From contig QOPE01000001.1 in NCBI GenBank assembly GCA_003331565.1, forward strand, positions 15,823-79,822: a stretch of 64,000 nucleotides of DNA, read 5' to 3'. Within the stretch, counting starts at the first letter, position 1; each line of letters opens with the position of its first letter. Both the position numbers and the translations under genes were made by a program. Below are positions 7,884 to 36,399 of this stretch, in pieces. This DNA comes from SAR86 cluster bacterium (GTDB lineage Bacteria > Pseudomonadota > Gammaproteobacteria > Magnimaribacterales > D2472). Under the pieces are notes generated by a model, which had not been told where the DNA came from, did not search any database, and was given only the letters and a program-made list of their open reading frames with translations.

Positions 7884-8489
7884 ATGAGTAGTAACTATAT
7901 CGAATTCTACTTCGATTGTTCAAGTCCTTGGACATATTTAGGCTTTGTTGGAATCAATGAGATATCTTCGAAGTACAACATTGATATTAAATTTTTACCA
8001 ATTCTTGTAGGAGGAGTCTTTAATTCAGTAAATGACGATATATATAAATTCAGAGCAAAGCCCAACCCACTAAAATCTAATTACTATAATCAAGATTTAA
8101 AATTGTGGGCAAAAGTGAGGAATTTACAAATTAACTGGCCATCTATTTTTCCTATTAACTCTGTAAAAGCTATGCGTGGCGCATTATTTTTTAATGAGCA
8201 AGAGCAAATCTCAGATTATGCCCTCAAAATCTTTAAAGCTTATTGGACAGATGGAAAAGATATTTCCAAAGATAATGTAATTTCAGAGATATGTGAGGAT
8301 TTAAATATAGATTCCAATGCTTTCATAAATTTTATAAATCAAGAGACCACGAAAAGTGCATTAAAGGAAAATACTCAGGAGTTAATTGATAGAGGTGGCT
8401 TTGGATCACCAACATATTTTTTTAAGGACTCAATGTTTTTTGGCAATGATAGGATCCAATTACTTGAGGAGCAACTAAAGATTAGTTGA
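7884..8489 (+). CDS. 2-hydroxychromene-2-carboxylate isomerase / DsbA-like thioredoxin-fold protein
   Basis: The family pattern IEFYFDCSSPWTYLGF...GGFGSPTYF is present. I moved the start to ATG 7884 because the upstream 49 codons of the track ORF run antisense through prc. Confidence 0.75.
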   Translation: MSSNYIEFYFDCSSPWTYLGFVGINEISSKYNIDIKFLPILVGGVFNSVNDDIYKFRAKPNPLKSNYYNQDLKLWAKVRNLQINWPSIFPINSVKAMRGALFFNEQEQISDYALKIFKAYWTDGKDISKDNVISEICEDLNIDSNAFINFINQETTKSALKENTQELIDRGGFGSPTYFFKDSMFFGNDRIQLLEEQLKIS

Positions 8490-9567
8490 GTTGTAGTAAT
8501 GCTGCCTCTTCACGAACACGTTCAGGTGTGCCCAACAATTGTCTATTTAGGCCAATTCTTTTGAACCAATAATGTAGTCCTAATAGGTCTGTAAAACCCA
8601 TTCCTCCATGAACTTCAGTTGACTTTTTTGCCACTTCTTTAGTTACATCACTCAAATGGGACTTAGCCTGACATGCCATCAGCCTCGCTTCATTAGGCAT
8701 ATGTTTTTGCGCATGAGCGGCATGCCATATCAAGGCGTAGCAGGGCTCTAATTCAGCAACCATCTCCGCACACATATGCTTTACAGCTTGAAAAGAACCA
8801 ATAGCTCTACCAAATTGTTTTCTTTCTTTTGCATAATCAACAGCTTTATTAATCATGTTTTGAGCTGCTCCAAGAGAGTCAGCTGCAAGCATTATTCGTC
8901 CTGCATCAATTACCTTTTCTGCAGTATTTTTTGAATTTTTTGTTTGCTCTAAGATTTCAAAATCAACATTTTTTAATATCAATTCACAGACATTTCTAGT
9001 TCTATCGATTGTTTTTAATTCAACTAAATCTATTCCATTTGCTTGTGCATCAATGACACCGATGCATCCATTTATATCAGAGATCATAAAATGAGTTGCA
9101 TATTCATAATCCAATACAAAAAGAGATCTGCCTGAAATTTTGTTTCCTTTTATTTGGATTTCTGAGTCATCTCTTGCTCCAGTGAGAGCTGAAAATCCAA
9201 CTCCAAATTTAACTTCATTAGATGCAACATTGGTCAAGTAATTTTGCTTTTGTTTATCTGATCCACCATCAATAATAGCTATTGGTGCCATAACATACGA
9301 TCCTACGAAAGGTGTTGCTCCTGCCCCATATCCCAATGATTCTGATATTGCCGCTGCAAATAATATGTCTAATCCAAGTCCTCCAAATTCCTCAGGGACT
9401 AGAAGGCCATTAATACCTAAATTAACAATTCCATCATGTATATCTTTTGCAAATGTTCGATCATCAGCTGCAATTTTTCTAAGGATGTCTACTGATGAAT
9501 TCTCCTCAAGAAACCTTTTAATATTATCTTGGAAGAAAATTTGATCCTCTGATAATCCAAAATACAT
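8482..9567 (-). CDS. acyl-CoA dehydrogenase family protein (small, probably non-catalytic partner)
   Basis: ACAD fold is indicated by EVHGGMGFT. By manual alignment there is no Glu at either known catalytic-base position (IDAGRIML and LLGTPERV). It lies 3 nt downstream of the larger ACAD gene. Confidence 0.8.
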   Translation of the reverse strand: MYFGLSEDQIFFQDNIKRFLEENSSVDILRKIAADDRTFAKDIHDGIVNLGINGLLVPEEFGGLGLDILFAAAISESLGYGAGATPFVGSYVMAPIAIIDGGSDKQKQNYLTNVASNEVKFGVGFSALTGARDDSEIQIKGNKISGRSLFVLDYEYATHFMISDINGCIGVIDAQANGIDLVELKTIDRTRNVCELILKNVDFEILEQTKNSKNTAEKVIDAGRIMLAADSLGAAQNMINKAVDYAKERKQFGRAIGSFQAVKHMCAEMVAELEPCYALIWHAAHAQKHMPNEARLMACQAKSHLSDVTKEVAKKSTEVHGGMGFTDLLGLHYWFKRIGLNRQLLGTPERVREEAALLQLN

Positions 9568-9570
9568 TTT

Positions 9571-10800
9571 TTATTGAGCTCCCTGAACTTTAGGTTCCTT
9601 TGGGAGCCCAAGTCCTCGTTCAGAAATAATATTTTTTTGTATTTGACTGGTGCCACCCCCAATAATTAATCCTAGGAAATACATATAAATAAATTGCCAT
9701 GATCCTTTATCACGTAGGTGTGGACTATCCTCATACAACACTCCAATCTCACCCATAACATCAATCGCCAAACCCTCTAGTTCGTGCCTTAACTCAGTAC
9801 CAACTAATTTTTGAATCATTTTACCAACTTTGACATCTTGACCAGGATTCAATTTGGCTGACAATAATCTGAGAGCATGAGACTGGGAGGCCATAATTTT
9901 CCCCTGGATCTTCATAAGCCTATCCCTGTAAATCGAATGCTCAATCAGAGGTTTGCCATCAAGCTTTTCTTGTTTCATTAAATCAATGAGCATGTTTAGT
10001 CTGTTCATAATTGCATCAGGCGGTGCTAAGGAGCCTCGCTCATGACCAAGTGTTGCATTTGCAACTGCCCAACCTTCTCCTCGTTTACCAACAATATTTG
10101 TTTCAGGAATTTTTACATCAGTAAAAAATACCTCATTAAATCCTGCTTTCATTGTCATATCTACTAATGGTCTCACTTCGATACCCTCTGAATCCATTGG
10201 AATTAACAAATAGCTTATACCTGCATGTTTTTGAGCTTCAGGTTCTGTTCTAACTAGGCAAAACATCATTTGCGAATATTGAGCAGTTGAGGTCCAAATC
10301 TTTTGCCCATTAATTACCCATTCACCATCAATTAATTCACCCTTTGTTTGCAATGCTGCGAGATCACTGCCCGCATTTGGTTCAGAGTAGCCCTGACACC
10401 AAATCATCTCACCATGAAGTGTTGGTTTTATGTATTTCTCTTTTTGTTCCTGTGTACCCATTTCAAGTAGGGTAGGGACCAACATATCTATCCCTTGGCC
10501 TCCCATTGGGGCAGGAGTTTTTGCTTTAGAAAACTCAGTTGCAATTATTCTGCTTTTAAGAATGTCTGGCTCACCGCCATATCCCCCATATTCTTTCGGA
10601 ACTGCTCTTGCAAAATAACCTTGTTCGATAAGAATTTTTTGCCACTCACTCCTGGTGACTTGTATCTTTTTTTTCTTACTGCTTAAGCTTGCAAGAGGAT
10701 TCTTACTTGCATCTGTAAAAGTAACGCCATCATATTTTTTACAAAAAGCCTTTACTTCTTTTTCGAAATCTAAATATTCTTTACTATAGTGTAGGTCCAT
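9571..10800 (-). CDS. acyl-CoA dehydrogenase (large subunit)
   Basis: ACAD motifs are CQGYSEPNAGSDLA, KIWTS, GEGW...TLGHERGS and GGGTSQIQKNII. Confidence 0.88.
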   Translation of the reverse strand: MDLHYSKEYLDFEKEVKAFCKKYDGVTFTDASKNPLASLSSKKKKIQVTRSEWQKILIEQGYFARAVPKEYGGYGGEPDILKSRIIATEFSKAKTPAPMGGQGIDMLVPTLLEMGTQEQKEKYIKPTLHGEMIWCQGYSEPNAGSDLAALQTKGELIDGEWVINGQKIWTSTAQYSQMMFCLVRTEPEAQKHAGISYLLIPMDSEGIEVRPLVDMTMKAGFNEVFFTDVKIPETNIVGKRGEGWAVANATLGHERGSLAPPDAIMNRLNMLIDLMKQEKLDGKPLIEHSIYRDRLMKIQGKIMASQSHALRLLSAKLNPGQDVKVGKMIQKLVGTELRHELEGLAIDVMGEIGVLYEDSPHLRDKGSWQFIYMYFLGLIIGGGTSQIQKNIISERGLGLPKEPKVQGAQ

Positions 10801-10815
10801 ATTTTCCTTATAAAA

Positions 10816-11631
10816 TTATTTCCAATTAGGAGGTCTCTTTTCTAAGAATGCTGTTATACCTTCTTTTGCATCTTCACCTTTTAGGCATTTTGCTAATTCA
10901 TCTTTTAAAAAAGGAATTGCTTCATCAAAGTTTAAATCATCTTGAGCATTGTAAGCAGCTAGACCTTGTCTCATGGTAGTAGGTGCTAGGCTCGCTAGTT
11001 CATTAGCAATGCCATCAACTATGCTGCCAAGATCTTCAGCCTTTACTACTTTGTTAATTAATCCATATTCTTTTGCCGTTTCAGCATCAATAGCATTGCC
11101 TCGCATAATGAAGTCTAGTCCTTGCCTTTTAGGCATTAATCTAAATAATCCTGCCATGACCATGAAAGGCCATATCCCTCTTTTTATTTCAGGTGCTGAA
11201 AATTTAGCTTCTGCAACCGCAACCGCATGAGTTGAGTTAGTTACCATCAACAAAGCTCCAGCTAAAACACTACCTTGTATTTTACAAATAACTGGTTTAT
11301 TAAGTTTCCTGATTCTAATGCTAATATCCTCAGTCCCTCCGCCAAGCTTAGGAACACTTGATTGCTCTGATTCTTCTTTTCCTGACATACTTCTTAGATC
11401 ACCACCAGCACAAAAAATATCTCCAGCTGCTTCAATTACAACAACTCTTATATTTTGATTCTGATCTGCATAGGTTAGGCAGTAAATTAATTCATTCGCC
11501 ATCATGTCATTGATAGCATTTTTTCTTTCCGGTCTGTTTAATTTGAGAGTTAAGATATGATCATTTTCATTCACTATCAAAGCCCCAAACTTTAATCCAT
11601 CCAGTGATAAAGATTTTTTATGCATATTCAT
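10816..11631 (-). CDS. enoyl-CoA hydratase/isomerase (crotonase) family protein
   Basis: It has the oxyanion-hole segment FCAGGDL and the PEIKRGIWP catalytic-Glu segment. The size is 271 aa. Confidence 0.85.
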   Translation of the reverse strand: MNMHKKSLSLDGLKFGALIVNENDHILTLKLNRPERKNAINDMMANELIYCLTYADQNQNIRVVVIEAAGDIFCAGGDLRSMSGKEESEQSSVPKLGGGTEDISIRIRKLNKPVICKIQGSVLAGALLMVTNSTHAVAVAEAKFSAPEIKRGIWPFMVMAGLFRLMPKRQGLDFIMRGNAIDAETAKEYGLINKVVKAEDLGSIVDGIANELASLAPTTMRQGLAAYNAQDDLNFDEAIPFLKDELAKCLKGEDAKEGITAFLEKRPPNWK

Positions 11632-11632
11632 T

Positions 11633-13399
11633 TTAAGTCTCCAAAAGAGTAGAGGGGATATTTACTTTTTTTGCTCTAAGGTATTCACCTAAAGACTTTG
11701 CCTGAGCATCTTTTCTTGAATTAGATGAAACACCATCCTCTAGAATATCGTGAATATAAAAATTAAGAGAAAGGATGTTAGGAAGATCGAATCTCTCTAT
11801 TTTAAATTCTTTTAGATCAGGCATTAATTCTTTAAGCTTTTCAATTGTTAGAAATGAACTCAAAAATGCAAACGCATCTAAATCTTTTGCCCACACTCCC
11901 AAATTTGCACAACCACCCTTATCTCCTGATCTTGCACCAAACAAAGTCCCTAGAGGGACATGACTTGTTTCACCTTTTGGAGCATCCGGTATTTTTACAG
12001 GCTCTGTTTGATAGTAAATTTCTTCAAAATTTAACTGACTTGTTGGCTTAAGTTCTTTTGATTTACCATTGAAATGGACCACTTCATTGATATGCTTTGA
12101 ATCTACTAATGCTGGCCAATAAATGAGTACCGGGCCATCAGATTTAACGCCACCACCAGCAAAAAAGCCGGGATAGTTTGATAAAGCTAATTCAATAATC
12201 TTTGCACTAAAAAGTCTGCCAACAAGTTCTTTATCTTTTGATTTAACATTTATTCTCAGAGCAGCCATTGCTTCTTCATTAGTGTTAGGGTCATCTTTAT
12301 CATTTCTATCAAGATGAATTGAAACCTCATCAAATTGTTCTCTTCCCCCTACAGAGTTAAATAAAGTATCCGTAAATATTTTAGCTTTCTCCTCAATATC
12401 CAATCCTGTCAAAACTAGCTCCATACCATTTCTATAACCCCCGGCAAGGTTAATGCACACTTTATGTTTTTCTGGAGGTGAGCTTCCTCTACAACCCGAA
12501 ACAAATACTTTATCTTTTTCGGTTTGCTCAATTTTTAAAGTATCAAAATGCGCAACAACATCAGGATTTATATAAGCAGGAGCAGAAATTTCATACAACA
12601 ATTGTGCTGTTACTGTTCCTGTTGATACAAGCCCTCCTGTCCCAGGATGCTTCGTAATATAAAAGCTACCATCCTCCAGAATTTCTGCTATTGGATAGCC
12701 TACGTTATCAAAGCTTGGAACTTCTTTAAAAAAAGCATAATTACCACCTGTGGCCTGGCAGCCACATTCAATAATATGACCAGCAGCTAATGCACCTGCT
12801 AATTTGTCATAATCGTTACGCTCCCAACCAAATTTCCATGCAGCCGGACCTATTACTACTGCAGCGTCAGTTACTCTTGGGCAAACAACTATGTCTGCCC
12901 CTAGATCTAACGCCTCCTTGATACCCCATGCTCCTAGATAAGCATTTGCTGTGAGAGTATGACAGTCAGATTCTTGAAGAGGCGTACCTTTATCAATGTT
13001 ATTAAAAGGTTCATTTAATTGAATCAAATTTTCCATTCGTGGCATCAAGTCATCACCAGTAATGTAGGCTACTTTTAGATCAGTTTTTAATTCAGCAAGA
13101 ATCTTTTCAATTTCGTTTGCCATTGATTGAGGATTTAAACCTCCTGCATTAGTAACTACTTTAATGTTCTTCGATTTACATGTGTGCGCAATTTCTTTTA
13201 TTTGCTTTAAAAATGTCCCTACGTAACCTTTATCTTCACCTCTTTGCATTCTTTGATTGAAAAGAATTGTCATTGTCAGTTCTGCTAAATAATCTCCAGT
13301 AAGAACGTCTATAGGGCCTCCCTCAACCATTTCTTTAGCTGCAGATAACTTATCTCCATAATAACCACTGCAATTAGCTATTCGTATAAGATCAGTCAT
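11633..13399 (-). CDS. AtuA-like acyclic terpene utilisation protein (DUF1446, with C-terminal DUF4387-like part)
   Basis: The N-terminus IRIANCSGYYGDKLSAAKEMVEGGPIDVLTGDYLAELTM and the C-terminal RSGDKGG...AQAKSLGEYLR resemble AtuA/DUF1446 proteins. The 588-aa length fits, and so does the context with an acyl-CoA carboxylase. Confidence 0.75.
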   Translation of the reverse strand: MTDLIRIANCSGYYGDKLSAAKEMVEGGPIDVLTGDYLAELTMTILFNQRMQRGEDKGYVGTFLKQIKEIAHTCKSKNIKVVTNAGGLNPQSMANEIEKILAELKTDLKVAYITGDDLMPRMENLIQLNEPFNNIDKGTPLQESDCHTLTANAYLGAWGIKEALDLGADIVVCPRVTDAAVVIGPAAWKFGWERNDYDKLAGALAAGHIIECGCQATGGNYAFFKEVPSFDNVGYPIAEILEDGSFYITKHPGTGGLVSTGTVTAQLLYEISAPAYINPDVVAHFDTLKIEQTEKDKVFVSGCRGSSPPEKHKVCINLAGGYRNGMELVLTGLDIEEKAKIFTDTLFNSVGGREQFDEVSIHLDRNDKDDPNTNEEAMAALRINVKSKDKELVGRLFSAKIIELALSNYPGFFAGGGVKSDGPVLIYWPALVDSKHINEVVHFNGKSKELKPTSQLNFEEIYYQTEPVKIPDAPKGETSHVPLGTLFGARSGDKGGCANLGVWAKDLDAFAFLSSFLTIEKLKELMPDLKEFKIERFDLPNILSLNFYIHDILEDGVSSNSRKDAQAKSLGEYLRAKKVNIPSTLLET

Positions 13400-13997
13400 G
13401 CTGCTTCTCTATTAAACCGGATAAAATTAAATCAGATAAAAAATTTGATGAATCTTCTGGTGAAGCCAATGACGGCTTAGAGTGAATTTTTTTATTTTGA
13501 AAGTATCTGCCCAAACCTCCCAAGGCCAAAGCTGTTGCTTCGGTATCGATATCAGCAATTTCATTAGCTTTAACAGCTTCATCCAAAAGGCTTTTAATAA
13601 AATTTGTAATGTAATTTTCATGAAAATCTATCATTTCGTTGGTTGAATGTTTTTTGCTCAAAGATAAAGTAAATTTTTCAAATCTTGGACCCACAGCCTG
13701 ATTGACAGTATTCAAGTAGACATGCAATTTTTCTATGGGAGAATCTAGTGTTTGAATTTTTTCCATAGCAATTTTGCCATGCTTGGTTAAAACATTATTA
13801 ATGGTTAAATTTATCAGCTCATCCTTACTCGGCGCAATTTCATAAAGCGTTCTCAGGGATACCTTAAGCATTGATGCTAAATCGGCCATTGTTTTATATG
13901 ACTTACCCTCATCAATTATCTTTTCAAGCCGATCCATAACTTCATGATGACGATGGTTTAAAGTACTTGCTTCTTTTAAGAGAGCTTTATTCATCAA
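13392..13997 (-). CDS. TetR-family transcriptional regulator
   Basis: It has an N-terminal HTH (TMADLASMLKVSLRTLYEIAPSKDEL) and is 201 aa. It overlaps the upstream carboxylase gene by 11 nt and the downstream AtuA-like gene by 8 nt. Confidence 0.8.
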   Translation of the reverse strand: MMNKALLKEASTLNHRHHEVMDRLEKIIDEGKSYKTMADLASMLKVSLRTLYEIAPSKDELINLTINNVLTKHGKIAMEKIQTLDSPIEKLHVYLNTVNQAVGPRFEKFTLSLSKKHSTNEMIDFHENYITNFIKSLLDEAVKANEIADIDTEATALALGGLGRYFQNKKIHSKPSLASPEDSSNFLSDLILSGLIEKQHD

Positions 13998-15906
13998 TTA
14001 CCAATAGTGATTCACCGTTTTCAACCTGCTGACCTTTTTTAACCATAATCTTTGAAATTTTGCCTGCATTTGGTGACTTGATCGTTTGCTCCATCTTCAT
14101 AGCTTCAATAATCATTAATGATTGTCCAGCTTTAACTTTTTGATCTTTTTTTATAAGAACCTCTGAAATTTTGCCTGGCATCGGAGCCAACAAACCACCT
14201 TCAATGGATGAAGTACTTGGATCAACGAATCTCGGTAAAACCTTCAGTTGGATATCATTAAATGAGTCAAAAACGAATAACCTATCTTTGTCCCTATAAA
14301 TTTGATATTGACTTCTAATATCATCAATAACACATTCAAGCACTTCATTATCAAAGGAAATAATTTCCACATTTTTTTCAAGAATCGAAATAGATTCTTT
14401 ATTTATGTAGCTATATTTAATTTGATGTATCTCATTTTCAAATTGAAAAGAAATATTCTGATGCGGCAGTCGACCATTCGTCCAAGAATGCTTAATAAAT
14501 CGGAGTTTATTTTTATTTTTAATATTAGTTTGCGATATCCACAAAGCGCCTGCGATCATTAAGTTATTTTTATTATAATCGTTGAGAACTTTTTTCCTGT
14601 TAGGACTTTGAATCTCAATAAAGTCAGATGTTGTATTTCCGGCCAAAAACTCTGGATGCCTGATGCATTCAACTAAAAAATCTTTATTTGTTTTCACTCC
14701 TCCAATACAGGATTTTTCAAGGGCGGTTGCGAGTTGTAAGCATGCATCTGTCCTGTTGGGGGCCCAGCTGATTACTTTTGAGAGCATTGGATCGAAGTTT
14801 GTACCGACCTCATATCCTTTCTGGACACCTGAATCCCACCTAATAGATTTATTTTTGTAAGGTTCATAACATACTATTTTTCCAGTTTCAGGTAGAAAAT
14901 CATTATTTGGATTCTCTGCATAAAGTCGAACTTCCAGTGCATGCCCATTAAATTCAACATCGTTTTGTTTTAATTCTAGATACTCATTTTTTGCAATGTT
15001 TATCTGTGCTCTTACAAGATCAACTCCTGTAACTTCCTCAGTAACAGGATGTTCAACTTGCAACCTAGTGTTAACTTCAAGAAACCAGAACTCATTTGTA
15101 TTTTCATCAAGAATAAATTCGACAGTGCCTGCCGATTGATATTTAATTTTTTTTGCCAATTTGACTGCCGCATTACCAATTTGCTCTCTTAACTCATCAT
15201 CAAGTTTGGGTGAAGGGGACTCTTCAATAATTTTTTGATGTCGTCTTTGAATTGAGCATTCTCTTTCACCTAGATGTATAACATTTCCATGTTGATCACC
15301 CAGAATCTGAATCTCAATATGTCTTGATTTTTTAATGTATTTCTCAATAAATACTCTCTCATCATCAAAACCAGATTTTGCTTCTCTTTTTGCAGCTGCA
15401 ACTGCATCTTTAAGCTCATTTTTATTATTAACAATTCTCATCCCTTTACCACCGCCTCCAGCAGCAGCTTTAATTAGCAATGGGAATCCAAGTTGTTTTG
15501 AGTCTTTAATACTTTCAGCTTTTTCTAGAGTTGGTACGTTTGCTTTTATCGCTAATTCTTTAGCTTTGATTTTGTCTCCCATCACCTTAATAACATGAGG
15601 TGTTGGTCCTATCCAAATTATGTTGTTACGAATTACTTTTCTGGCAAAAATTGAGTTTTCAGATAGAAACCCATAGCCAGGATGGATTGCATCGGCTTCT
15701 GTCTTTTTTGCTGCATCTACAATTTCATCTGCATCCAAATAGCCATTTTTAAGTTTTACTGCAACATCAGACATGCTTACAAATGTTGCATTTGAATCAG
15801 CTTCTTCATAAACGGCAATTGTTTTAATTCCCATTTCATTAGCTGTTCTTATGATTCTGCAAGCAATTTCACCGCGGTTAGCTATAAGTATGGAATTGAT
15901 TTTCAT
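13987..15906 (-). CDS. biotin-dependent acyl-CoA carboxylase alpha subunit (biotin carboxylase + BCCP; geranyl-/methylcrotonyl-CoA carboxylase type)
   Basis: It has the ATP-grasp biotin carboxylase N-terminus (ILIANRGEIACRIIRT, GGGGKGMR) and the C-terminal biotinylation motif EAMKME. Confidence 0.9.
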   Translation of the reverse strand: MKINSILIANRGEIACRIIRTANEMGIKTIAVYEEADSNATFVSMSDVAVKLKNGYLDADEIVDAAKKTEADAIHPGYGFLSENSIFARKVIRNNIIWIGPTPHVIKVMGDKIKAKELAIKANVPTLEKAESIKDSKQLGFPLLIKAAAGGGGKGMRIVNNKNELKDAVAAAKREAKSGFDDERVFIEKYIKKSRHIEIQILGDQHGNVIHLGERECSIQRRHQKIIEESPSPKLDDELREQIGNAAVKLAKKIKYQSAGTVEFILDENTNEFWFLEVNTRLQVEHPVTEEVTGVDLVRAQINIAKNEYLELKQNDVEFNGHALEVRLYAENPNNDFLPETGKIVCYEPYKNKSIRWDSGVQKGYEVGTNFDPMLSKVISWAPNRTDACLQLATALEKSCIGGVKTNKDFLVECIRHPEFLAGNTTSDFIEIQSPNRKKVLNDYNKNNLMIAGALWISQTNIKNKNKLRFIKHSWTNGRLPHQNISFQFENEIHQIKYSYINKESISILEKNVEIISFDNEVLECVIDDIRSQYQIYRDKDRLFVFDSFNDIQLKVLPRFVDPSTSSIEGGLLAPMPGKISEVLIKKDQKVKAGQSLMIIEAMKMEQTIKSPNAGKISKIMVKKGQQVENGESLLVIDE

Positions 15907-17555
15907 AATCTGAAGACCCCAAACTCACTTGCACCTTTAATTTCAGAGTTATTAATTACAGATAAGCAAAAACCAATTATTGTTCTTGTATCTCTTGGAT
16001 CAATTATCCCATCATCGGTAATCATGCTGCTCGCAACTAGGCCAAGGGACATTTGTTCAGCCATATTTTCAACCATTTTTACAATTTCAGCATCAGCTTT
16101 TTCATCAAATTTTTCACCTTTTCTTGCAGCCTGGCCTCTCCTTACAATCGACATAACACCAGCGATTTGCTTTGGTCCCATCACAGCAATTTTTGCTGTT
16201 GGCCAAAGGAAAGTGAACTTATTATCATAGGCCTTACCTGACATTGCGTATGTCCCAGCTCCATAAGATGATCCCACAATAATGGTAATATGGGGCACGG
16301 TTGAATTTGATACTGCATTTATAAGTTGAGAACCTTTTTTAATGATCGCTTGTCTTTCAAAGTCTTTACCGACAAGAAAACCAGTAACATTTTGTAAAAA
16401 AATTATTGGCATATTTCTTTTATTGCAGAGCTGAATAAATGTTGCTGCTTTTTCAGCAGACTCTGGATAAATTGGGCCATTGTTGCCAACAATGCCAACA
16501 GGATAGCCATGCATCATTGACCAACCACATATCATTGTTTTTCCATAAAGAGGCTTATATTCTTCAAACCTTGATCCATCAACAATTCTTCCTATCACCT
16601 CTCTAATATCCAATGGACTTTTAAGATCTTCATCAACCAACCCCAATAACTCGTCAGGATCTAAGGTGGGCTCATCTCCAAACAAGGAAGGCTCTATTCC
16701 CTGTTTTTCCCAATGAAGATGTGAAACAACGTTGCGGCATAAACGAATAGCATCCATTTCATCTTCAGCAAGATAGTCAGATAAGCCTGATACCTCAGAG
16801 TGCATCTTAGCGCCGCCAAGGGTTTCATCATCAGACTCTTCGCCAGTTGCCATTTTTACAAGAGGGGGCCCTGCTAAAAAAACTTTAGCTTGATCTTTAA
16901 CAAATATATTGTAATCAGACATTCCAGGTTGATATGCACCACCGGCTGTAGAAGATCCAAAAACAACTGAGATGACCGGTATTCTCATTTTTGAGAGTTC
17001 TGTCATGTCATAAAAAAATCTTCCAGTCGCAGCAAAATGAGTATGTCCAATTGTGGGTGCTATCGGAGGCTGATCTCCTTTCTTACCTGTACCCATTCTT
17101 AAATCACCACCTGCAGATTCAACAAAATTTATATACGGCAATCGATTTACTCTGGCAATTTCCATTGCACGATTCCACTTTTCTCCGACATAAACTGTCA
17201 TAGCTCCTGCTAGTACAGATGGATCATTTGCAAATATTACGCATTCTGTACCAGCAACAACTCCTATACCACATACGCAACCACCGCCAACAGTAAATTC
17301 CGTCCCATAGGCAGCAAATGGTGCAATTTCAAGAAATGGTGTGTCGGGATCTAGAAGATTGAAGACTCTTTCTCTAACAGGCATTTTTCCTCTTTTTGCT
17401 AGTCTTTCATGATGATGCTTACCACCTCCCAGTTTTGCTTTATCAAGAAGTTCATCAAGGAAACTTATCTTATCAAGCATCATTTCTTTGTTCTGAGAAA
17501 ACTCTTCAGAGTTAGTATCAAGATTGGATTTAATTTTTGGTGCAAGATTTTTCAT
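15903..17555 (-). CDS. acyl-CoA carboxylase carboxyltransferase (beta) subunit
   Basis: Carboxyl-transferase family features are RGKMPVRERVFNLLDPDTPFLE and duplicated crotonase-like halves. It overlaps the alpha gene by 4 nt. Confidence 0.9.
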   Translation of the reverse strand: MKNLAPKIKSNLDTNSEEFSQNKEMMLDKISFLDELLDKAKLGGGKHHHERLAKRGKMPVRERVFNLLDPDTPFLEIAPFAAYGTEFTVGGGCVCGIGVVAGTECVIFANDPSVLAGAMTVYVGEKWNRAMEIARVNRLPYINFVESAGGDLRMGTGKKGDQPPIAPTIGHTHFAATGRFFYDMTELSKMRIPVISVVFGSSTAGGAYQPGMSDYNIFVKDQAKVFLAGPPLVKMATGEESDDETLGGAKMHSEVSGLSDYLAEDEMDAIRLCRNVVSHLHWEKQGIEPSLFGDEPTLDPDELLGLVDEDLKSPLDIREVIGRIVDGSRFEEYKPLYGKTMICGWSMMHGYPVGIVGNNGPIYPESAEKAATFIQLCNKRNMPIIFLQNVTGFLVGKDFERQAIIKKGSQLINAVSNSTVPHITIIVGSSYGAGTYAMSGKAYDNKFTFLWPTAKIAVMGPKQIAGVMSIVRRGQAARKGEKFDEKADAEIVKMVENMAEQMSLGLVASSMITDDGIIDPRDTRTIIGFCLSVINNSEIKGASEFGVFRL

Positions 17556-17572: not shown

Positions 17573-17600
17573 TGGTAATATAATAAACTAAATATTACCA
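17573..17600. promoter_or_regulatory. inverted repeat TGGTAATAT-N10-ATATTACCA
   Basis: The 9-bp perfect arms were read directly. It sits in the divergent spacer between the two ATTAG/CTAAT palindromes. Its function is unknown (an operator or a 5'-UTR hairpin). Confidence 0.3.
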
Positions 17601-17656: not shown

Positions 17657-18796
17657 ATGAACTCAAGAATCTGCGAACTATTAGATATCGAATTTCCTCT
17701 GGTAGCATTTACTCATTGTAGAGATGTGGTTGTTGCTGTATCAAAAGCAGGAGGGTGTGGTGTACTAGGTGCAGTTGGTATGACACCAGAACAATTAGAA
17801 GAGGAGCTCAAATGGATTGATGATCATATCGATGGCTTGCCATACGGAGTAGATGTTCTTATACCTAACAAAATGGCAGACAAGGACAAAAAGTTTGATG
17901 CAAAAAAACTATCATCAATGATCCCACAGGAATATGCTGATTTTAGGGCTGACATTCTTGAAAATCATGATATCGAAGCCAGTGAGTTAAGAAAAATTAA
18001 TACCGCTGCAACATATATGGCTGAGAACACCAAGGAGGATGGAGCTAAGGCACTTTTGGATGTTGCGTTCAGTCATCCCATAAAAATAATCGCTAATGCT
18101 CTTGGAGTGCCACCCGATTGGATGGTAAAAATGGGTAAAGATAACAATGTTAAAGTTGCTGCACTTCTTGGGACCTCACAACATGCTATTAACCAAGTAA
18201 AAGCTGGCGTTGATATATTAGTAGTTTCTGGCACCGAAGCAGGTGGTCATTGCGGCAGTGTTTCAACAATGGTCTTGATCCCTGAAGTTTATGAAGCTAT
18301 TCAACCGTATGGTGATGTTCCAATCTTAGCAGCAGGTGGAATTGCAACTGGAAAACAGATGGCTGCAGCTATGAGCATGGGTGCATCTGGTGCGTGGTGT
18401 GGATCAGTATGGCTAACAACAGCTGAGTCAGAAGTTCCACCTATAATTAAACAAAAAATGATCGAAGCGTCCTCGAGTCAAACAACTCGTTCTAGAAGTA
18501 GAACTGGTAAACATTCAAGACAGCTTGTTTCAGCATGGACTCAAGCTTGGGAAGCTGATGGTGCACCTGAACCACTTCCAATGCCCTTACAGCCAATGGT
18601 CGCTGAACCAGCATTAGCAAAGGTTAATAAATTAGCAGAGGGTGGTCATGAAGGAGCTAAAGATCTTTCTACCTACTGGGTTGGTCAGGGAGTAGGGCTA
18701 ATGAATCAGAGCATTTCTGCCAGCGATGTTGTCCAAGAATTTAAAGAAGACTTCATTGAGGCCTATGAAAGGCTAGCTAATTTTATAGGCGAATAA
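17657..18796 (+). CDS. nitronate monooxygenase (NMO/2-nitropropane dioxygenase family) FMN oxidoreductase
   Basis: NMO family segments are VSGTEAGGHCG and AAGGIATGKQMAAAMSMGASG. An AAGGA Shine-Dalgarno-like sequence lies about 11 nt upstream. Confidence 0.8.
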   Translation: MNSRICELLDIEFPLVAFTHCRDVVVAVSKAGGCGVLGAVGMTPEQLEEELKWIDDHIDGLPYGVDVLIPNKMADKDKKFDAKKLSSMIPQEYADFRADILENHDIEASELRKINTAATYMAENTKEDGAKALLDVAFSHPIKIIANALGVPPDWMVKMGKDNNVKVAALLGTSQHAINQVKAGVDILVVSGTEAGGHCGSVSTMVLIPEVYEAIQPYGDVPILAAGGIATGKQMAAAMSMGASGAWCGSVWLTTAESEVPPIIKQKMIEASSSQTTRSRSRTGKHSRQLVSAWTQAWEADGAPEPLPMPLQPMVAEPALAKVNKLAEGGHEGAKDLSTYWVGQGVGLMNQSISASDVVQEFKEDFIEAYERLANFIGE

Positions 18797-18844
18797 TTTT
18801 ATTAGTTTCTATTTGGATGGTGGCTGGCTCAGTAACAGTTAACT

Positions 18845-19456
18845 CTATTCAATAAATCTTTGTGAAGTTGCCCGTTTAAACGCATCTCGATTAAATAGTT
18901 TTTCTGACCATCGAGCTATATTTGGCTTTAATGCTTCGTTAACATTTAAAGAAGTAGCTAAATAAATAGCATAGCTTACACATATATCAGCTAGAGTGAA
19001 TCGGTCGCTACAAAGGTATTCCCTAGATTCTAACTTTTTTTCTAACAACCTCAGTCTTGCCAAAAACCATCTTTTGTAACCTTCTGCAGCTGCATCAGCC
19101 ACACCTACTTCTTGTAGGGCATATCTTAGGTAAACAGTAAGAGGGAAGGTCAAAGTAGCATCAGAATGCGCAAGCCAATTTAGATAATCAGCATAGTCAT
19201 CTTCATCAGGAGAAACTATTAAATCAGATGGACCATATTGCTCACACAAATAAGTACACATAGCTACTGATTCGGTCATTTCAACTTTTCCATCCTTTAA
19301 ATATGGAACAGTGCCAAGAATATTTATATCTAGATATTCCTTTTTAAAAAATCTTGGTGGAAATGGCAGCATCTCTAACTCATAATCTAAACCCATTTCT
19401 TCTGCAGTCCATAAAGGGCGAACATGCCTTGAATCATTACATCCAAAAATCTTCAT
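18845..19456 (-). CDS. glutathione S-transferase family protein
   Basis: The 203-aa protein has a thioredoxin-like N-domain (GTVPYLKDGKVEMTESVAMCTYL) and a helical C-domain. Confidence 0.75.
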   Translation of the reverse strand: MKIFGCNDSRHVRPLWTAEEMGLDYELEMLPFPPRFFKKEYLDINILGTVPYLKDGKVEMTESVAMCTYLCEQYGPSDLIVSPDEDDYADYLNWLAHSDATLTFPLTVYLRYALQEVGVADAAAEGYKRWFLARLRLLEKKLESREYLCSDRFTLADICVSYAIYLATSLNVNEALKPNIARWSEKLFNRDAFKRATSQRFIE

Positions 19457-19539
19457 AATTTATTCATATCAAAAATATATTAAATTAGCATCTCAGTTCC
19501 AACATATCATTGCAACCTTATTTTGATTAGAATGATCTC

Positions 19540-20547
19540 ATGAAAATTGATGCGCCAATTATCACTAGAGATCCTAGTGATGCCGCAGATTTATCTTCAA
19601 AGATAGAGGCGTCGGGATTTGATGGGCTGTGTACATTTGAAGGTCCTCATGAACCATTCCTGCCGCTCGCAGTTGCGGCATCAAACACTAAAAAGATTAA
19701 TTTAATTACATCCATAGCCATTGCCTTTGCTAGGAATCCTATGCTGTTAGCAAATATTGGTTATGACTTACAGCTCTTATCAAAAGGACGATTTATTATG
19801 GGTCTTGGATCTCAGATCAAACCGCATATAGAAAAACGCTTTTCAATGCCATGGTCTTCTCCAGCAAACAGAATGAGGGAAATGATCCAAGCTATAAAAT
19901 CTATATGGGAATGTTGGGAAAATGGAACCCAGTTAAATTTTAAGGGAGAATTTTATAGTCATACGCTTATGACACCCCTTTTTAATCCTGGAAAACATGA
20001 GTATGGTCTTCCCAGTATATATCTTGCTGGAGTGGGGCCATTGATGACATGTGTAGCAGCAGAAGTTGCTGATGGATTATTGGTCCATCCATTTCATTCA
20101 GTAAAATCTCTTGAAGCCATAACACTTCCTGCAGTAGACAAAGGGCTTAATAAATCAAAAAATAAAAATTTTAAAATTTCAATTGGCGCCATGGTGGCTG
20201 CTGCAGATGATCAGAATGAGCTTGATCAAGCAATTAATGGACTGAGAATGCAGCTTGGTTTTTATGGCTCCACACCTGCCTATAAAGTTGTTCTAGAGGA
20301 GCATGGTTGGGAGAATATACATTTTGAACTTAACAAGCTCTCAAAAAAAGGAGCGTGGGATGAGATGCCAAAACTTATTAATGATGAAATGCTGGAAACA
20401 ATTGCCATTGTCGGAAGTATTAATTCTGCCAAGGATCAGATTCATGAAAGGTACTCTGCAATTGCTGAAAGAGTAGCTCCAACTTTTTTTAATCCTAATG
20501 CTGAAGCACCCTTTAACTTTATAAATGTTTTTAATGAGAGGCCTTAA
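19540..20547 (+). CDS. luciferase-like monooxygenase (LLM) class oxidoreductase, Rv2161c/TIGR03617-like
   Basis: The pattern GFDGLCTFEGPHEPFLPL...IAFARNPMLLA...GRFIMGLGSQIKPHIEKRF resembles that LLM subfamily. Confidence 0.7.
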   Translation: MKIDAPIITRDPSDAADLSSKIEASGFDGLCTFEGPHEPFLPLAVAASNTKKINLITSIAIAFARNPMLLANIGYDLQLLSKGRFIMGLGSQIKPHIEKRFSMPWSSPANRMREMIQAIKSIWECWENGTQLNFKGEFYSHTLMTPLFNPGKHEYGLPSIYLAGVGPLMTCVAAEVADGLLVHPFHSVKSLEAITLPAVDKGLNKSKNKNFKISIGAMVAAADDQNELDQAINGLRMQLGFYGSTPAYKVVLEEHGWENIHFELNKLSKKGAWDEMPKLINDEMLETIAIVGSINSAKDQIHERYSAIAERVAPTFFNPNAEAPFNFINVFNERP

Positions 20548-21027
20548 TTGAAAACTCTACCAGATATATCAGACCTATATCCTCAGATGCTAAATGTCTC
20601 CAATAAAAGATTTCTTCGATATGGCAAATCTAATATTCTTAATGGTGAGATCGAAACTGTTTTCTGTACCGATGATAACAGCCTAGTTAAATCAATTCTG
20701 GCAGAAGATGGTAGAGGAAGGATATTAGTTATTGATGCAGTAGGTGTTAATCATGTTTCCATGATTGGTGATCAAATTGCTGCTGAGGCAGTAAAAAATA
20801 ATTGGCAGGGAGTTGTCTTAAACGGTTACATAAGAGATGTAACAGAGATTAATGATCTTCCAATATCAATAATTGCAAAAGGCAGCGTGTTTAAAAAAAC
20901 TGAAAAATTTGGTCTTGGAAAGAGAGGAGCAATGATTTCCTTTGCAGGATTGATATTTAAACCGGGCTACTGGTTGTACGCAGACGAAAATAATTTTGGG
21001 ATCAGTCGTCAAAAATTAGAATTTTGA
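20548..21027 (+). CDS. rraA: RraA-family protein (RNase E regulator RraA or HMG/CHA-aldolase-type enzyme)
   Basis: It aligns by eye with E. coli RraA along its length (DGRGRILVIDAVG...WQGVVLNGYIRDV...YADENNFGI). The TTG start lies immediately after the LLM stop codon. Confidence 0.7.
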   Translation: MKTLPDISDLYPQMLNVSNKRFLRYGKSNILNGEIETVFCTDDNSLVKSILAEDGRGRILVIDAVGVNHVSMIGDQIAAEAVKNNWQGVVLNGYIRDVTEINDLPISIIAKGSVFKKTEKFGLGKRGAMISFAGLIFKPGYWLYADENNFGISRQKLEF

Positions 21028-22663: not shown

Positions 22664-23803
22664 TTAGTAGCCGCTTATATCTGCGTATCTAGACTTATGA
22701 TAAGTTGAGGAACCAAAAATTTGTTCTGCCACTCTTGCACGTTTTAGATAAAAGCCAATGTCATACTCATCTGTAACACCAATACCACCATGCATTTGGA
22801 TTGATTCATTGCTTACTGTGTGCAAGGTTGTACCAGCTTGAAATTTTGCCAGGCTTGATAGCCTTTCAAGCTCATTAGAGTTTTCATCTGCAGCATGCAT
22901 TGCAGCTATTACAGCTGATTTTGTTAACTCGATTTCACAAAACATTTTTGCTGCTCTATGTTGCAAAGCCTGAAATGACCCAATCAGCACACCAAACTGC
23001 TTTCTTTCCTTAAGATAATTTAAAGTTATTGCAAATGCTTCCTCGGTATTTCCTAGCATTTCCGCTGACATTGCAATTCTTCCAAAATCCAAAACTTTTT
23101 GAATTTGGTCAGAAGCACCATCAATCTCGCCAAGGATTGCCTCAGCTGAAATTGTTACATCTTCAAATGAAATATTTGCATAATTTCTTGAATCTGCAGT
23201 TGGTACTTTTCTTCTATTTATACCCTTTAAACTAGGATCTACAATGAATGCTGATAATCCTTGGGCATCACCTTTGTTACCAGAAGTTCTAGCTATAACA
23301 ATCAAAAGATCAGCACTTGAACCATCAATTACAAAAACCTTTTCTCCATTGATGACCCATCCATCATTATTTTTTTCAGCGGTAAGCTCTGTATTTGCAG
23401 GTTCATGATGTGATCCCTCGTCAATTGCTAGAGCAGTCGTCAGCTTACCTTCAAGAATTTTTCCAAGAAGTTCTTCTTTTTGAGACTCGGAACCCATTTG
23501 ATTGATCGAAGTAACGCCTAATACACCTGTAGCAAATAAGGGAGAGGGAACTAGAGTTTTGCCTAACTCTTGAAGCACCACGCTTATGCCTGCAAGACCA
23601 AACTCTGAACCTCCATATTTCTCTGGAATAAGAATGCTTGTCCAGCCAAGCTCAACCATTTCATTCCATAGACCTTCATCCCAAGAATTTGGATGATCTT
23701 CATCTCTGAGTTTTCTTAAGTGAGATACCGGAGCTTTATCTTTTGCGAAGTTTGAAGCAGTATCTTTTAAAAACTGTAATTCTTCATTTAAGACTAGTTT
23801 CAT
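22664..23803 (-). CDS. acyl-CoA dehydrogenase family protein (small, probably non-catalytic partner)
   Basis: ACAD fold is indicated by IQMHGGIGVT. It reads LDFGRIAM and IFGSSTYH at the two catalytic-base positions, so neither has a Glu (manual alignment). Confidence 0.8.
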   Translation of the reverse strand: MKLVLNEELQFLKDTASNFAKDKAPVSHLRKLRDEDHPNSWDEGLWNEMVELGWTSILIPEKYGGSEFGLAGISVVLQELGKTLVPSPLFATGVLGVTSINQMGSESQKEELLGKILEGKLTTALAIDEGSHHEPANTELTAEKNNDGWVINGEKVFVIDGSSADLLIVIARTSGNKGDAQGLSAFIVDPSLKGINRRKVPTADSRNYANISFEDVTISAEAILGEIDGASDQIQKVLDFGRIAMSAEMLGNTEEAFAITLNYLKERKQFGVLIGSFQALQHRAAKMFCEIELTKSAVIAAMHAADENSNELERLSSLAKFQAGTTLHTVSNESIQMHGGIGVTDEYDIGFYLKRARVAEQIFGSSTYHKSRYADISGY

Positions 23804-23815
23804 ATTAATCCTTTA

Positions 23816-25006
23816 TTAAGCAGGAAGATCTAAAACTCTTTTAGCGATTACATTTAATTGAACTTCAGAAGTGCCGCCCTCAATTGAGTTTGCTTTTGTT
23901 CTCAACCATGCCCTTGTAATAGCTTTCTCTTTAGATTCAGCTTCATCACCATCCCAAATAAAACCTTTGTTACCCATGGCTTCTATCATGAGTTCATATC
24001 TGTTTTTATTATGCTCTGTCCCGTAGTATTTAAATATTGATGATGCAGCTGAGGCTTTTCCACCTTCATCGCCAGCTCTTTGGAGAGTTAAACCGAAGGA
24101 ATGCTCTTTCATCTTATGCTCAGTTACTCTTGATCTAAAATCTAGATCTGCAATTTTTCCATTTTCTTCACCAAGATATGTTTTTGCGAGTCCTACTACG
24201 CCTTTAGTCTTAGATCCATCACCACCACCTGCAGCAAGCCCAAAGTTTGATATAAAGTTTCTTTCATGTTGAAGGAGCTTCTTTGCAATGGTCCAGCCTT
24301 GATTCTCTTTTCCAATCAAGTTTTCTTTTGGGACTTTCACATTATCAAAAAAAGTTTCACAAAATGGAGACTTTCCACTGATTAAGGTTATAGGTTTTGT
24401 AGTAACCCCAGGATCAGCCATATCAATTAATAAAAAACTAATACCACTATGTTTTGGTTCTTTTGGACCAGTTCTGACTAGAGCAAATATCCAATCAGCC
24501 TGATCAGCATATGATGTCCAAACTTTTTGGCCATTTACTAGATAATGATCACCCATATCTTCAGCTTTTGTTGAGAGAGAAGCTAAATCAGAACCTGATC
24601 CTGGTTCGGAGTAACCCTGGCACCATCTAATTTCACCTTTAAGTATTTTTGGTATGTGTTCCATTTTTTGAGCTTCATTACCGTATTCAATTATTACTGG
24701 AGCCAACATCCAAATACCAAAACTATTAAGTGCAGGTCTTGCTCCAATTTTAAAGAGTTCAGAGTTAAGAATTTTAATTTCATCACTGTTTAGACCGCCC
24801 CCACCATATTCCTTAGGTAATGCTGGAGCAGTCCATCCTTTTCCACCCATTTTATCTAGCCATATTTTTGATTCAGGATTTTTGTAAATAGCGTTCCTGC
24901 CACCCCAGACAACTTCGTCTTCAACCATTGGAGTTCTCATGGATGGAGGACAGTTTTCTTCTAACCACTCACTAACTTCAGCTCTAAAATTTTCTAAATT
25001 ACTCAT
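23816..25006 (-). CDS. acyl-CoA dehydrogenase (large subunit)
   Basis: ACAD motifs are CQGYSEPGSGSDLA, KVWTS, NQGW...LLQHERNF and IEGGTSEVQLNVI. Confidence 0.88.
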   Translation of the reverse strand: MSNLENFRAEVSEWLEENCPPSMRTPMVEDEVVWGGRNAIYKNPESKIWLDKMGGKGWTAPALPKEYGGGGLNSDEIKILNSELFKIGARPALNSFGIWMLAPVIIEYGNEAQKMEHIPKILKGEIRWCQGYSEPGSGSDLASLSTKAEDMGDHYLVNGQKVWTSYADQADWIFALVRTGPKEPKHSGISFLLIDMADPGVTTKPITLISGKSPFCETFFDNVKVPKENLIGKENQGWTIAKKLLQHERNFISNFGLAAGGGDGSKTKGVVGLAKTYLGEENGKIADLDFRSRVTEHKMKEHSFGLTLQRAGDEGGKASAASSIFKYYGTEHNKNRYELMIEAMGNKGFIWDGDEAESKEKAITRAWLRTKANSIEGGTSEVQLNVIAKRVLDLPA

Positions 25007-36359: not shown

Positions 36360-36399
36360 TTTGGGAAATCGAATCCCGAGGGATTACAATACCTGCTCG

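Follow-up and report, generated by a model that had tools for sequence, protein, structure and literature searches.

A SAR86 operon with an AtuA-family protein as a proposed Atu-type module for 3-methyl-branched acyl-CoA

The operon described here consists of seven minus-strand genes at positions 8482-17555 of a stretch of 64,000 nucleotides from the genome of a SAR86 cluster bacterium (contig QOPE01000001.1 of assembly GCA_003331565.1); the whole 64-kb stretch is referred to as the window. A 3-methyl (beta-alkyl) branch blocks beta-oxidation, and we consider it somewhat probable that this operon is a self-contained module which removes such a branch from isoprenoid-type acyl-CoA by Atu-type chemistry. 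Its AtuA-family protein is proposed to act as a 3-hydroxy-3-alkylglutaryl-CoA:acetate lyase. As judged from the sequences, the operon appears to work like the Atu pathway without being an ortholog set of it; the initial annotation of this DNA, which had read the genes as a compact, rearranged atu relative for methyl-branched acyl-CoA, was right in outline.

All seven open reading frames (ORFs) were confirmed and form one tight operon. In the order of the operon, they encode a carboxyltransferase (CT) beta subunit (15903-17555, 550 amino acids (aa); Pfam Carboxyl_trans, E = 7e-125), a biotin carboxylase (BC)/biotin carboxyl carrier protein alpha subunit (13987-15906, 639 aa; Pfam Biotin_carb_N, CPSase_L_D2, Biotin_carb_C and Biotin_lipoyl), a divergent TetR-family regulator (13392-13997, 200-201 aa; assigned by an ortholog profile against the PDB, with weak Pfam matches), an AtuA-family protein (11633-13399, 588 aa; PF07287 AtuA, E = 2e-161, and PF23544 AtuA_ferredoxin) and a crotonase-family hydratase (10816-11631, 271 aa; ECH_1, E = 3e-45). 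The last two genes encode the large, catalytic subunit (9571-10800, 409 aa; three acyl-CoA dehydrogenase (ACAD) domains in Pfam) and the small, probably non-catalytic subunit (8482-9567, 361 aa; N- and C-terminal ACAD domains in Pfam) of an ACAD. By their coordinates, the first four genes overlap by 4, 11 and 8 nt, and the next three junctions are gaps of 1, 15 and 3 nt, which agrees with the earlier description of seven same-strand genes with overlaps or gaps of 15 nt at most. The 4-nt overlap joins the start of the alpha-subunit gene to the stop of the beta-subunit gene, and the second overlap is 8 instead of 11 nt if the ATG at 13994 is taken as the start.

As no 3-hydroxy-3-methylglutaryl-CoA (HMG-CoA) lyase motif was found in the window or in the 80 related AtuA loci compared here (designated by L numbers), we propose the order ACAD, carboxylase, single-Glu hydratase and AtuA as acetate lyase, with all steps inferred from family membership and gene context. 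The two-subunit ACAD would give a 3-methyl-2-enoyl-CoA, the gamma-methyl group of which would then be carboxylated by the biotin carboxylase (alpha and beta subunits); the open, Phe-free pocket of this enzyme would take a substrate larger than 3-methylcrotonyl-CoA. Subsequently, the single-Glu crotonase would hydrate the product to 3-hydroxy-3-alkylglutaryl-CoA, and AtuA, as a fused CmlA+CmlB-type lyase, would split off the carboxymethyl group as acetate. The 3-oxoacyl-CoA left by this fourth step would be finished by thiolase and beta-oxidation enzymes encoded elsewhere. Both acyclic isoprenoid acids and the side chains of 24-methyl sterols come into question as substrates; most likely, the substrate is an isoprenoid acid longer or bulkier than geranate, e.g. 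one derived from phytol or farnesol.

Fold, family precedent and gene context together point to AtuA as the acetate-releasing lyase of the operon. The initial annotation had proposed to check the 588-aa protein against the DUF1446/DUF4387 profiles, and it was found to match end to end: PF07287 is covered at profile positions 1-437 of 437 (E = 2.4e-161), with an additional match to PF23544 (E = 3.7e-15). AtuA of the window is 35% identical to AtuA of Acinetobacter baumannii, and the family comprises 6572 clusters (50% identity) at E <= 0.001. The single sequence did not match any PDB sequence. An AlphaFold2 model built from 35 diverse homologs (predicted local distance difference test 91.6, predicted template modelling (TM) score 0.90) was compared with the PDB by Foldseek, which returned one strong match, 9evf_A (E = 8.7e-22, probability 1.0, TM 0.72 when normalised to the target), from the 2025 entry entitled 'Citramalate lyase - ADP - pyruvate complex'. 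Chain 9evf_B (105 residues) also matched (probability 0.99, TM 0.63, 108 alignment columns), and from its length and fold we take its counterpart to be the C-terminal ferredoxin-like domain of AtuA. The layout of AtuA is that of a CmlA-like core (residues 5-443) followed by a CmlB-like ferredoxin-like domain (residues 482-579). A profile of the AtuA family also found chain A of 9erq/9evf (E = 1e-7), which is deposited as 'Acyclic terpene utilization AtuA family protein | Citramalate lyase, subunit A (cmlA)'; the hidden Markov model alignment of AtuA and CmlA covers profile positions 80-187 and 261-350, with R175, D178, D116 and G86 in common. The invariant residues of AtuA include D16, E40, D116, R175, D178, H208, E211, C212 and K313. 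With this deposition, the earlier statement that the function of AtuA is unassigned is out of date as far as the family is concerned.

A 2026 preprint from I. Berg's laboratory, in which CmlAB of Raoultella planticola was used, states that this enzyme converts citramalate directly into pyruvate and acetate (bioRxiv 10.64898/2026.01.16.699985). In 2015, when it was not yet known what becomes of citramalate, the same laboratory had already pointed out an unexplained DUF1446 gene beside that for methylaspartate ammonia-lyase in enterobacteria (PMC4682846). As citramalate cleavage is an acetate release from a tertiary beta-hydroxy acid, it is the same bond chemistry as that of the 3-hydroxy-3-isohexenylglutaryl-CoA (HIHG-CoA) lyase step. 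In P. aeruginosa, HIHG-CoA lyase activity is attributed to LiuE, and AtuA is given no role (review PMC4097962). Our literature searches on AtuA returned expression, biosensor and review papers and no enzymology of AtuA from an atu-type cluster, while those on citramalate lyase returned only a study using CmlAB and no primary CmlAB paper. To look for an HMG-CoA lyase, we searched six frames of the 64-kb window and of the 80 related loci for PRDG[LFI]Q and G[LIVM]GGCP, which we take to be the signature motifs of this enzyme. Neither motif was found in either set. An HMG-CoA lyase gene nearby, which had been named at the outset as a sign of plain leucine catabolism, was thus not detected by its motif in the window.

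The alpha subunit of the carboxylase carries the biotinylation motif 'IIEAMKMEQ' (EAMKME) and is 41% identical to A. baumannii AtuF. Compared to PDB sequences, the beta subunit scored nearly equally with the beta subunits of human 3-methylcrotonyl-CoA carboxylase (MCC; 476 bits), P. aeruginosa MCC (464 bits) and P. aeruginosa geranyl-CoA carboxylase (PaGCC; 448 bits). In MCC, Phe191 and a 3-residue insertion block geranyl-CoA, whereas geranyl-CoA carboxylase (GCC) has Gly162 at the position of the Phe and shows weak MCC activity (Jurado et al., PMC4673880). The alignment places a Thr at this selectivity position in the window beta subunit and Ser or Thr in the rest of its clade. The 3-residue MCC insertion is lacking (MAFFT alignment with human and P. 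aeruginosa MCC-beta), and the 'GSSTAGGAYQPGMSDY' motif is common to PaGCC. Just before the pocket residue, after 'ESAGGDLR', the clade has an insertion of its own that is Gly-rich in most members and in the window beta subunit amounts to 12 extra residues relative to PaGCC. The Phe of MCC was absent from every AtuA-linked CT-beta examined, and G, A, S or T occurred in its place.

We then calculated a neighbour-joining tree from 54 CT-beta sequences, including few reference enzymes, with 200 bootstrap replicates. The window CT-beta fell into a clade of its own (94.5%), separate from canonical GCC (PaGCC, A. baumannii AtuC and L008; 99.5%) and from MCC (97%). This clade joined a sister clade of actinobacterial AtuA-linked enzymes (92.5%) and in none of the 200 replicates grouped with canonical GCC alone. 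These sequence comparisons suggest a third lineage of gamma-carboxylating enzymes for the carboxylase, distinct from both MCC and canonical GCC; its pocket should accept substrates larger than C5. From the initial annotation, the atu-type carboxylase was retained insofar as the enzyme is predicted to be gamma-carboxylating and is AtuA-linked, but not as an equivalent of AtuC by descent; the proposed comparison with the MCC clade placed the beta subunit outside it. In addition, the AtuA-linked CT-beta proteins of L012, L014, L015, L016, L018 and L024 (Desulfobacterales, SAR324) group with MCC at 98.5% bootstrap and have kept the 3-residue insertion, with Gly in place of Phe191. They correspond to a natural version of the F191G mutant, in which activity with geranyl-CoA was gained.

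Of the two canonical catalytic Glu residues, the crotonase lacks the first ('AGALLM' instead of 'GGG.E') and retains the second ('PE'). This single-Glu pattern is also present in canonical A. baumannii AtuE ('GGGFGL', 'PE') and in all 24 aligned AtuA-adjacent crotonases of the related loci. Identity to AtuE of the A. baumannii atu cluster (L082) is 27%, and no AtuE-specific model or PDB match was top-ranked; the second-best NCBIfam match was EchA19 (178 bits vs a 400-bit cut-off). For the large ACAD, the best PDB matches were 4x28_A (168 bits) and Tcur3483 (6wy8_B, 148 bits). We take the former, which the PDB table labels only as 'Acyl-CoA dehydrogenase', to be the FadE26/ChsE4 chain, and 6wy8 to be IpdE1-IpdE2 with Tcur3483 as IpdE1, neither of which the table names. 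By NCBIfam, the large subunit is pimC_large-like (224 vs 624 bits) and the small one IpdE2- and pimD_small-like, each below the cut-offs. The large subunit has the helix-G Glu ('LGHERG') and a Gly at the position of Glu376 of medium-chain acyl-CoA dehydrogenase ('IGGGT'), which is the arrangement of isovaleryl-CoA dehydrogenase (IVD), and the pattern of AtuD equals it ('FQEERL', 'IGGGA'). In the small subunit, both catalytic positions are without Glu ('IDAGRI', 'LLGTPE'), and its gene always comes after that of the large one in L001, L002 and L005. These features fit a pair of a catalytic and a non-catalytic subunit (alpha2beta2) of the FadE26/27 kind. According to the alignment and the Pfam domains, the two are paralogous ACAD-family proteins and not halves of one gene; the 'split two-gene ACAD' of the initial annotation was replaced by a paralogous subunit pair in which only the large protein has the catalytic Glu. 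A second adjacent ACAD pair is located on the minus strand at 22664-25006, 5 kb from the operon. Its large (396 aa) and small (379 aa) proteins are 35% and 27% identical to the respective operon subunits, the small one again without catalytic Glu, and both are pimC/pimD-like below the cut-off.

Is the arrangement conserved? In comparing the 80 related loci, we discarded many minus-strand 'conserved' clusters as shadow ORFs of high-GC genomes (the GC content of the window is about 35%). The nearest genomic AtuA relatives came from uncultured Gammaproteobacteria and two SAR86 single-cell genomes (69-79% identity), and thousands of AtuA copies with 77-99% identity occur in marine metagenomes. Two near-identical contigs (L083, L084) have the identical gene order and the same neighbours, and all seven genes including the internal TetR gene occur in order in SAR86 AG-422-O05 (L002; contig QCMW01000001) and the gammaproteobacterium SP335 (L005). 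This recurrence shows that the operon is not a chance arrangement. A core of CT-beta, BC-alpha, an optional crotonase and AtuA is found in Pseudomonadales, Desulfobacterales, SAR324, Myxococcota, Chloroflexi, Acidimicrobiia and Actinomycetes. Among the 46 loci of at least 20 kb, a carboxylase lies within 7 kb of AtuA in 40 (87%), accompanied by a crotonase in 30. A minority of close AtuA homologs (L023, L043, L048, L064, L069, L076) have no carboxylase within 7 kb, and a family III CoA-transferase adjoins AtuA homologs in L022, L038, L056 and L077; the AtuA family may therefore serve further pathways. Directly beside AtuA, 25 of the 80 loci encode a DinB-like metal-binding protein (Pfam MDMPI_N; PGAP 'TIGR03084 family'), usually in the order ECH-TIGR03084-AtuA (e.g. 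L081:8153-8974, L005:4982-5833). A tblastn search of the window for such a partner found none (E > 0.3).

The regulator is divergent enough that its single sequence stays below the Pfam and NCBIfam thresholds (TetR_N, E = 0.0066; TetR_C_24, E = 0.0045), and public gene calls of this ORF carry no Pfam match. A profile of five orthologs matched over 60 TetR structures of the PDB at profile positions 19-199, best of all TetR 6azh_A (E = 7e-12), and the ortholog L077:2413-3048 passes Pfam TetR_N; both results identify the 201-aa ORF as a divergent TetR. Its gene overlaps both neighbour genes, bearing out the earlier placement of the regulator inside the operon, and occupies the same operon position in L002 and L005. 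A perfect 28-bp palindrome, TGGTAATAT-N10-ATATTACCA, occupies 17573-17600, in the 101 bp that separate the beta-subunit gene from a divergent gene for an NMO-like protein, and lies 18-45 nt ahead of the beta-subunit start codon. It is unique in the window even if 3 mismatches are allowed, with no second copy near, for example, the second ACAD pair. Of the 80 related loci, just two, L002 and L005, have the palindrome with the same arms and spacing, and in both it precedes the first gene as it does in the window. In the alignment of the three genomes, the arms are invariant, while spacer and flanks diverge. We regard the palindrome as a good operator candidate. The regulator is likely to act at this 9-N10-9 site as a repressor of the operon and, perhaps, also of the divergent NMO gene. 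It would autoregulate, as its gene is inside the operon, and would let go of the operator upon binding the acyl-CoA or acid of the pathway. In promoter and terminator scans, this AT-rich DNA did not score higher than shuffled sequence.

Compared to known systems, the operon is closest in logic to the atuR-atuABCDEFGH cluster of Pseudomonas, for which the canonical order was taken here from A. baumannii (L082). Both have AtuA, the two carboxylase subunits, TetR, a single-Glu crotonase and an ACAD with the helix-G Glu, and the inferred four-step logic is the same. However, identities are only 27-41%, and the window CT-beta is from another clade and has an extra loop. The order of the window genes is rearranged to C-F-R-A-E-D/D', with an internal, co-directional TetR gene instead of the divergent atuR and two ACAD subunits instead of the single-gene AtuD. 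The atu cluster also encodes the short-chain dehydrogenases/reductases (SDRs) AtuB/G and the synthetase AtuH. None of these occurs among the scanned window ORFs, which agrees with the earlier observation that AtuB/G/H equivalents are missing: neither the cluster nor the scanned part of the window has an SDR or acyl-CoA synthetase. CmlAB (PDB 9erq/9evf) is deposited as AtuA family; the fold of both its chains is that of the window AtuA model, and it turns a tertiary beta-hydroxy acid into a ketone and acetate, which is the reaction type needed in step 4. It differs from the fused 588-aa window protein in consisting of two chains (456 and 105 aa; identity 16-18%) and in its substrate, which is a free dicarboxylic acid and not a CoA thioester. 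The context of CmlAB is glutamate fermentation (DUF1446 gene beside mal, PMC4682846) and not a carboxylase operon.

The Liu pathway (MCC LiuB/D, hydratase LiuC, HMG-CoA lyase LiuE) has in common with the operon the carboxylase superfamily lineage, which gamma-carboxylates a 3-methyl-2-enoyl-CoA, and the order of carboxylation, hydration and cleavage. In contrast to Liu, the window beta subunit lacks Phe191 and the MCC insertion and lies outside the MCC clade; an HMG-CoA lyase motif and an IVD were not found in the window, and AtuA takes the place of LiuE. In alpha2beta2 ACADs (ChsE4-ChsE5 = FadE26/27, IpdE1-IpdE2, PimC-PimD), large and small genes are adjacent and one subunit has the catalytic Glu, as in the window. 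They show the best PDB/NCBIfam similarity to the window pair, yet with scores well under the equivalog cut-offs, and serve steroid or pimelate catabolism, whereas the predicted window pair belongs to a carboxylase/AtuA operon. Finally, actinobacterial CT-BC-ECH-TIGR03084-AtuA-ACAD-ligase-TetR clusters (e.g. Rhodococcus sp. DK180 pDK3, L081) have the same core order, a CT-beta of the sister clade and, in L081, an AtuA that is 51% identical to that of the window. These clusters carry the DinB-like TIGR03084 protein and an AMP-ligase, both of which the window lacks, while their CT-beta is without the Gly-rich insertion and their ACAD is a single gene.

Several points weigh against the operon being a self-contained Atu-type module. 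It contains no acyl-CoA synthetase, thiolase or alcohol/aldehyde dehydrogenase, which leaves the entry and exit steps unaccounted for. Identity of the crotonase and the ACADs to AtuE and AtuD does not exceed 26-27%, and the CT-beta tree is a neighbour-joining tree with the limited sampling given above. AtuA is only 16% identical to CmlA, the substrate of which is a free acid and no CoA ester, and the HIHG-CoA lyase activity of Pseudomonas is attributed to LiuE (PMC4097962). A LiuE-like gene could also sit elsewhere in the genome, beyond the 64-kb window. The low identity, the assigned activity of LiuE and the fact that only 64 kb of the genome are visible would also fit a different scenario, in which the pathway is the same but AtuA has an accessory role (trans-to-cis enoyl-CoA isomerisation, substrate delivery or assistance to the carboxylase) and the lyase is a LiuE-like, HMG-CoA-lyase-type enzyme encoded elsewhere. 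The DinB-like protein beside AtuA in 25 of the 80 loci could likewise do part of the chemistry there. We consider such an accessory role unlikely: the HMG-CoA lyase motif is absent within about 10 kb of AtuA in all 80 loci, which span many phyla, the carboxylase adjoins AtuA in 87% of the long loci, and the sole characterised family member is an acetate-releasing C-C lyase. The operon would otherwise also be without a candidate for the fourth step.

The remaining alternatives concern the substrate. If the operon served leucine/isovalerate degradation, the carboxylase would be an MCC and the crotonase a methylglutaconyl-CoA hydratase. The top PDB scores of the beta subunit are indeed to MCC beta subunits (476 and 464 vs 448 bits for GCC), GCC itself has weak MCC activity (PMC4673880), and a streamlined genome might run both jobs with one enzyme. 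However, the beta subunit lacks Phe191 and the MCC insertion and lies outside the MCC clade (97% bootstrap). Moreover, methylglutaconyl-CoA hydratase has a two-Glu site, which the crotonase does not. With no HMG-CoA lyase motif in the window, no IVD among the annotated genes, ACADs that are not IVD-like and a conserved linkage to AtuA, a role in leucine degradation appears very improbable. Nor do we expect a direct ortholog of the citronellol/geranate Atu pathway of Pseudomonas with geranyl-CoA as substrate. While the same five protein families, the small residue at the selectivity position, the absence of the MCC insertion and the 'GSSTAGGAYQPGMSDY' motif common to PaGCC would all suit it, the CT-beta never grouped with canonical GCC alone (0/200 bootstraps; GCC clade 99.5%) and has an extra loop beside the pocket. 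Identities of 27-41% to the canonical atu cluster, a two-subunit ACAD, the lack of AtuB, AtuG and AtuH and a host that is an open-ocean oligotroph make this origin highly doubtful. Alternatively, the C24 methyl of C26-oyl-CoA esters of algal 24-methyl sterols may be removed by the logic of carboxylation, hydration and acetate lyase, given that sterol numbering puts the C24 branch in the beta position relative to the C26 thioester. The large ACAD is closest to 4x28_A, presumably the cholesterol side-chain ACAD chain FadE26/ChsE4, and EchA19 is the second-best NCBIfam match of the crotonase. In the Rhodococcus pDK3 cluster, the flanking genes are related to SCP2 sterol-binding proteins and ketosteroid isomerases. 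SAR86 genomes are reported to have widespread fadE26/27-like genes and a potential for sterol side-chain degradation (PMC11582366). However, the steroid-like matches are all far under the family cut-offs (EchA19, 178 vs 400 bits), and cyp125, ring-degradation and sterol-transport genes were not found in the scanned window. The lyases for the C24 branch in Rhodococcus are Ltp3/Ltp4, and AtuA is not known to have this role there; a sterol substrate thus seems distinctly unlikely to us.

Upstream of the operon, the NMO/FabK-like FMN oxidoreductase (17657-18796, plus strand, 379 aa; PF03060 NMO, E = 2e-48) is FabK-like at 137 bits, below the cut-off of 453. NMO homologs lie near the same carboxylase clade in L002, L051, L055 and L077, and the gene, which shares the operator-bearing intergenic region, is a possible member of the regulon. 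It belongs to a group of flanking genes at 17657-21027 that further encode a glutathione S-transferase (GST), a TIGR03617-family 'F420-dependent' luciferase-like monooxygenase (LLM) oxidoreductase (431 bits, above the cut-off) and an RraA-like/HMG-aldolase-like protein. Distantly related taxa (L007, L009, L035, L051, L055, L077) likewise have NMO, LLM and GST homologs next to carboxylases of the window clade; an F420-type LLM is unexpected in a gammaproteobacterium. At the other end of the operon, a DsbA-like gene (PF01323; 7887-8489, plus strand), which may be of the kind counted as nahD in the SAR86 genome study, converges on the last ACAD gene with an 8-nt overlap and is a neighbour in L001, L083 and L084 as well.

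The remaining window is core genome, including a zinc alcohol dehydrogenase, leuCDB, trpBA, accD and acnB. No acyl-CoA synthetase or HMG-CoA-lyase-like domain was found among the window ORFs scanned, with a few ORFs lying outside the scan. At 36361-39863 on the plus strand, 19 kb from the operon, prpB-prpC-prpD (2-methylcitrate cycle) could dispose of propionyl-CoA from methyl-branched substrates. It is followed on the minus strand (39865-41880) by a gene for a 671-aa penicillin-amidase-family protein, possibly an acylase of N-acyl homoserine lactones or other acyl amides. A 449-aa ORF between asd and truA (47803-49152, plus strand) matches no Pfam family at E <= 1e-5.

If the proposed function is correct, the operon would be a clean system for addressing the AtuA question: an HMG-CoA lyase gene that could provide the activity in its stead was not detected in the vicinity, and the structure of a homolog, CmlAB, has been solved. 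The Phe/Gly rule that Jurado et al. established holds for further carboxylases, including the MCC-like deltaproteobacterial group; since the Phe is absent from every AtuA-linked carboxylase examined, AtuA linkage together with the pocket residue may annotate these enzymes better than the best BLAST hit. As a tentative possibility, SAR86 may use the third carboxylase lineage in a route for long or bulky 3-methyl-branched lipids, for example acids from the phytol of chlorophyll or the side chains of 24-methyl sterols. AtuA would then be a CoA-ester-specific acetate lyase, and the ADP moiety of CoA would sit in its nucleotide site, where the Cml structure contains ADP. If AtuA is such a lyase, its function, open since the description of the atu cluster, would be settled.

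A comparison of SAR86 genomes describes phyH-based alpha-oxidation and 'fadE26/27' sterol side-chain genes (PMC11582366); the terms 'carboxylase', 'terpen' and 'isoprenoid' were not found in text searches of it, so the operon appears to be undescribed there. Some of the SAR86 'fadE26/27' genes that were counted as steroid side-chain genes may belong to operons of this type, and the tentative lipid route, if true, would be a second marine route for branched lipids besides the proposed alpha-oxidation by phyH.

SAR86 are among the most abundant bacteria of the surface ocean. If the proposed function is correct, a compact, autoregulated four-step module would explain how such an abundant marine heterotroph passes the methyl branches that block beta-oxidation of isoprenoids.

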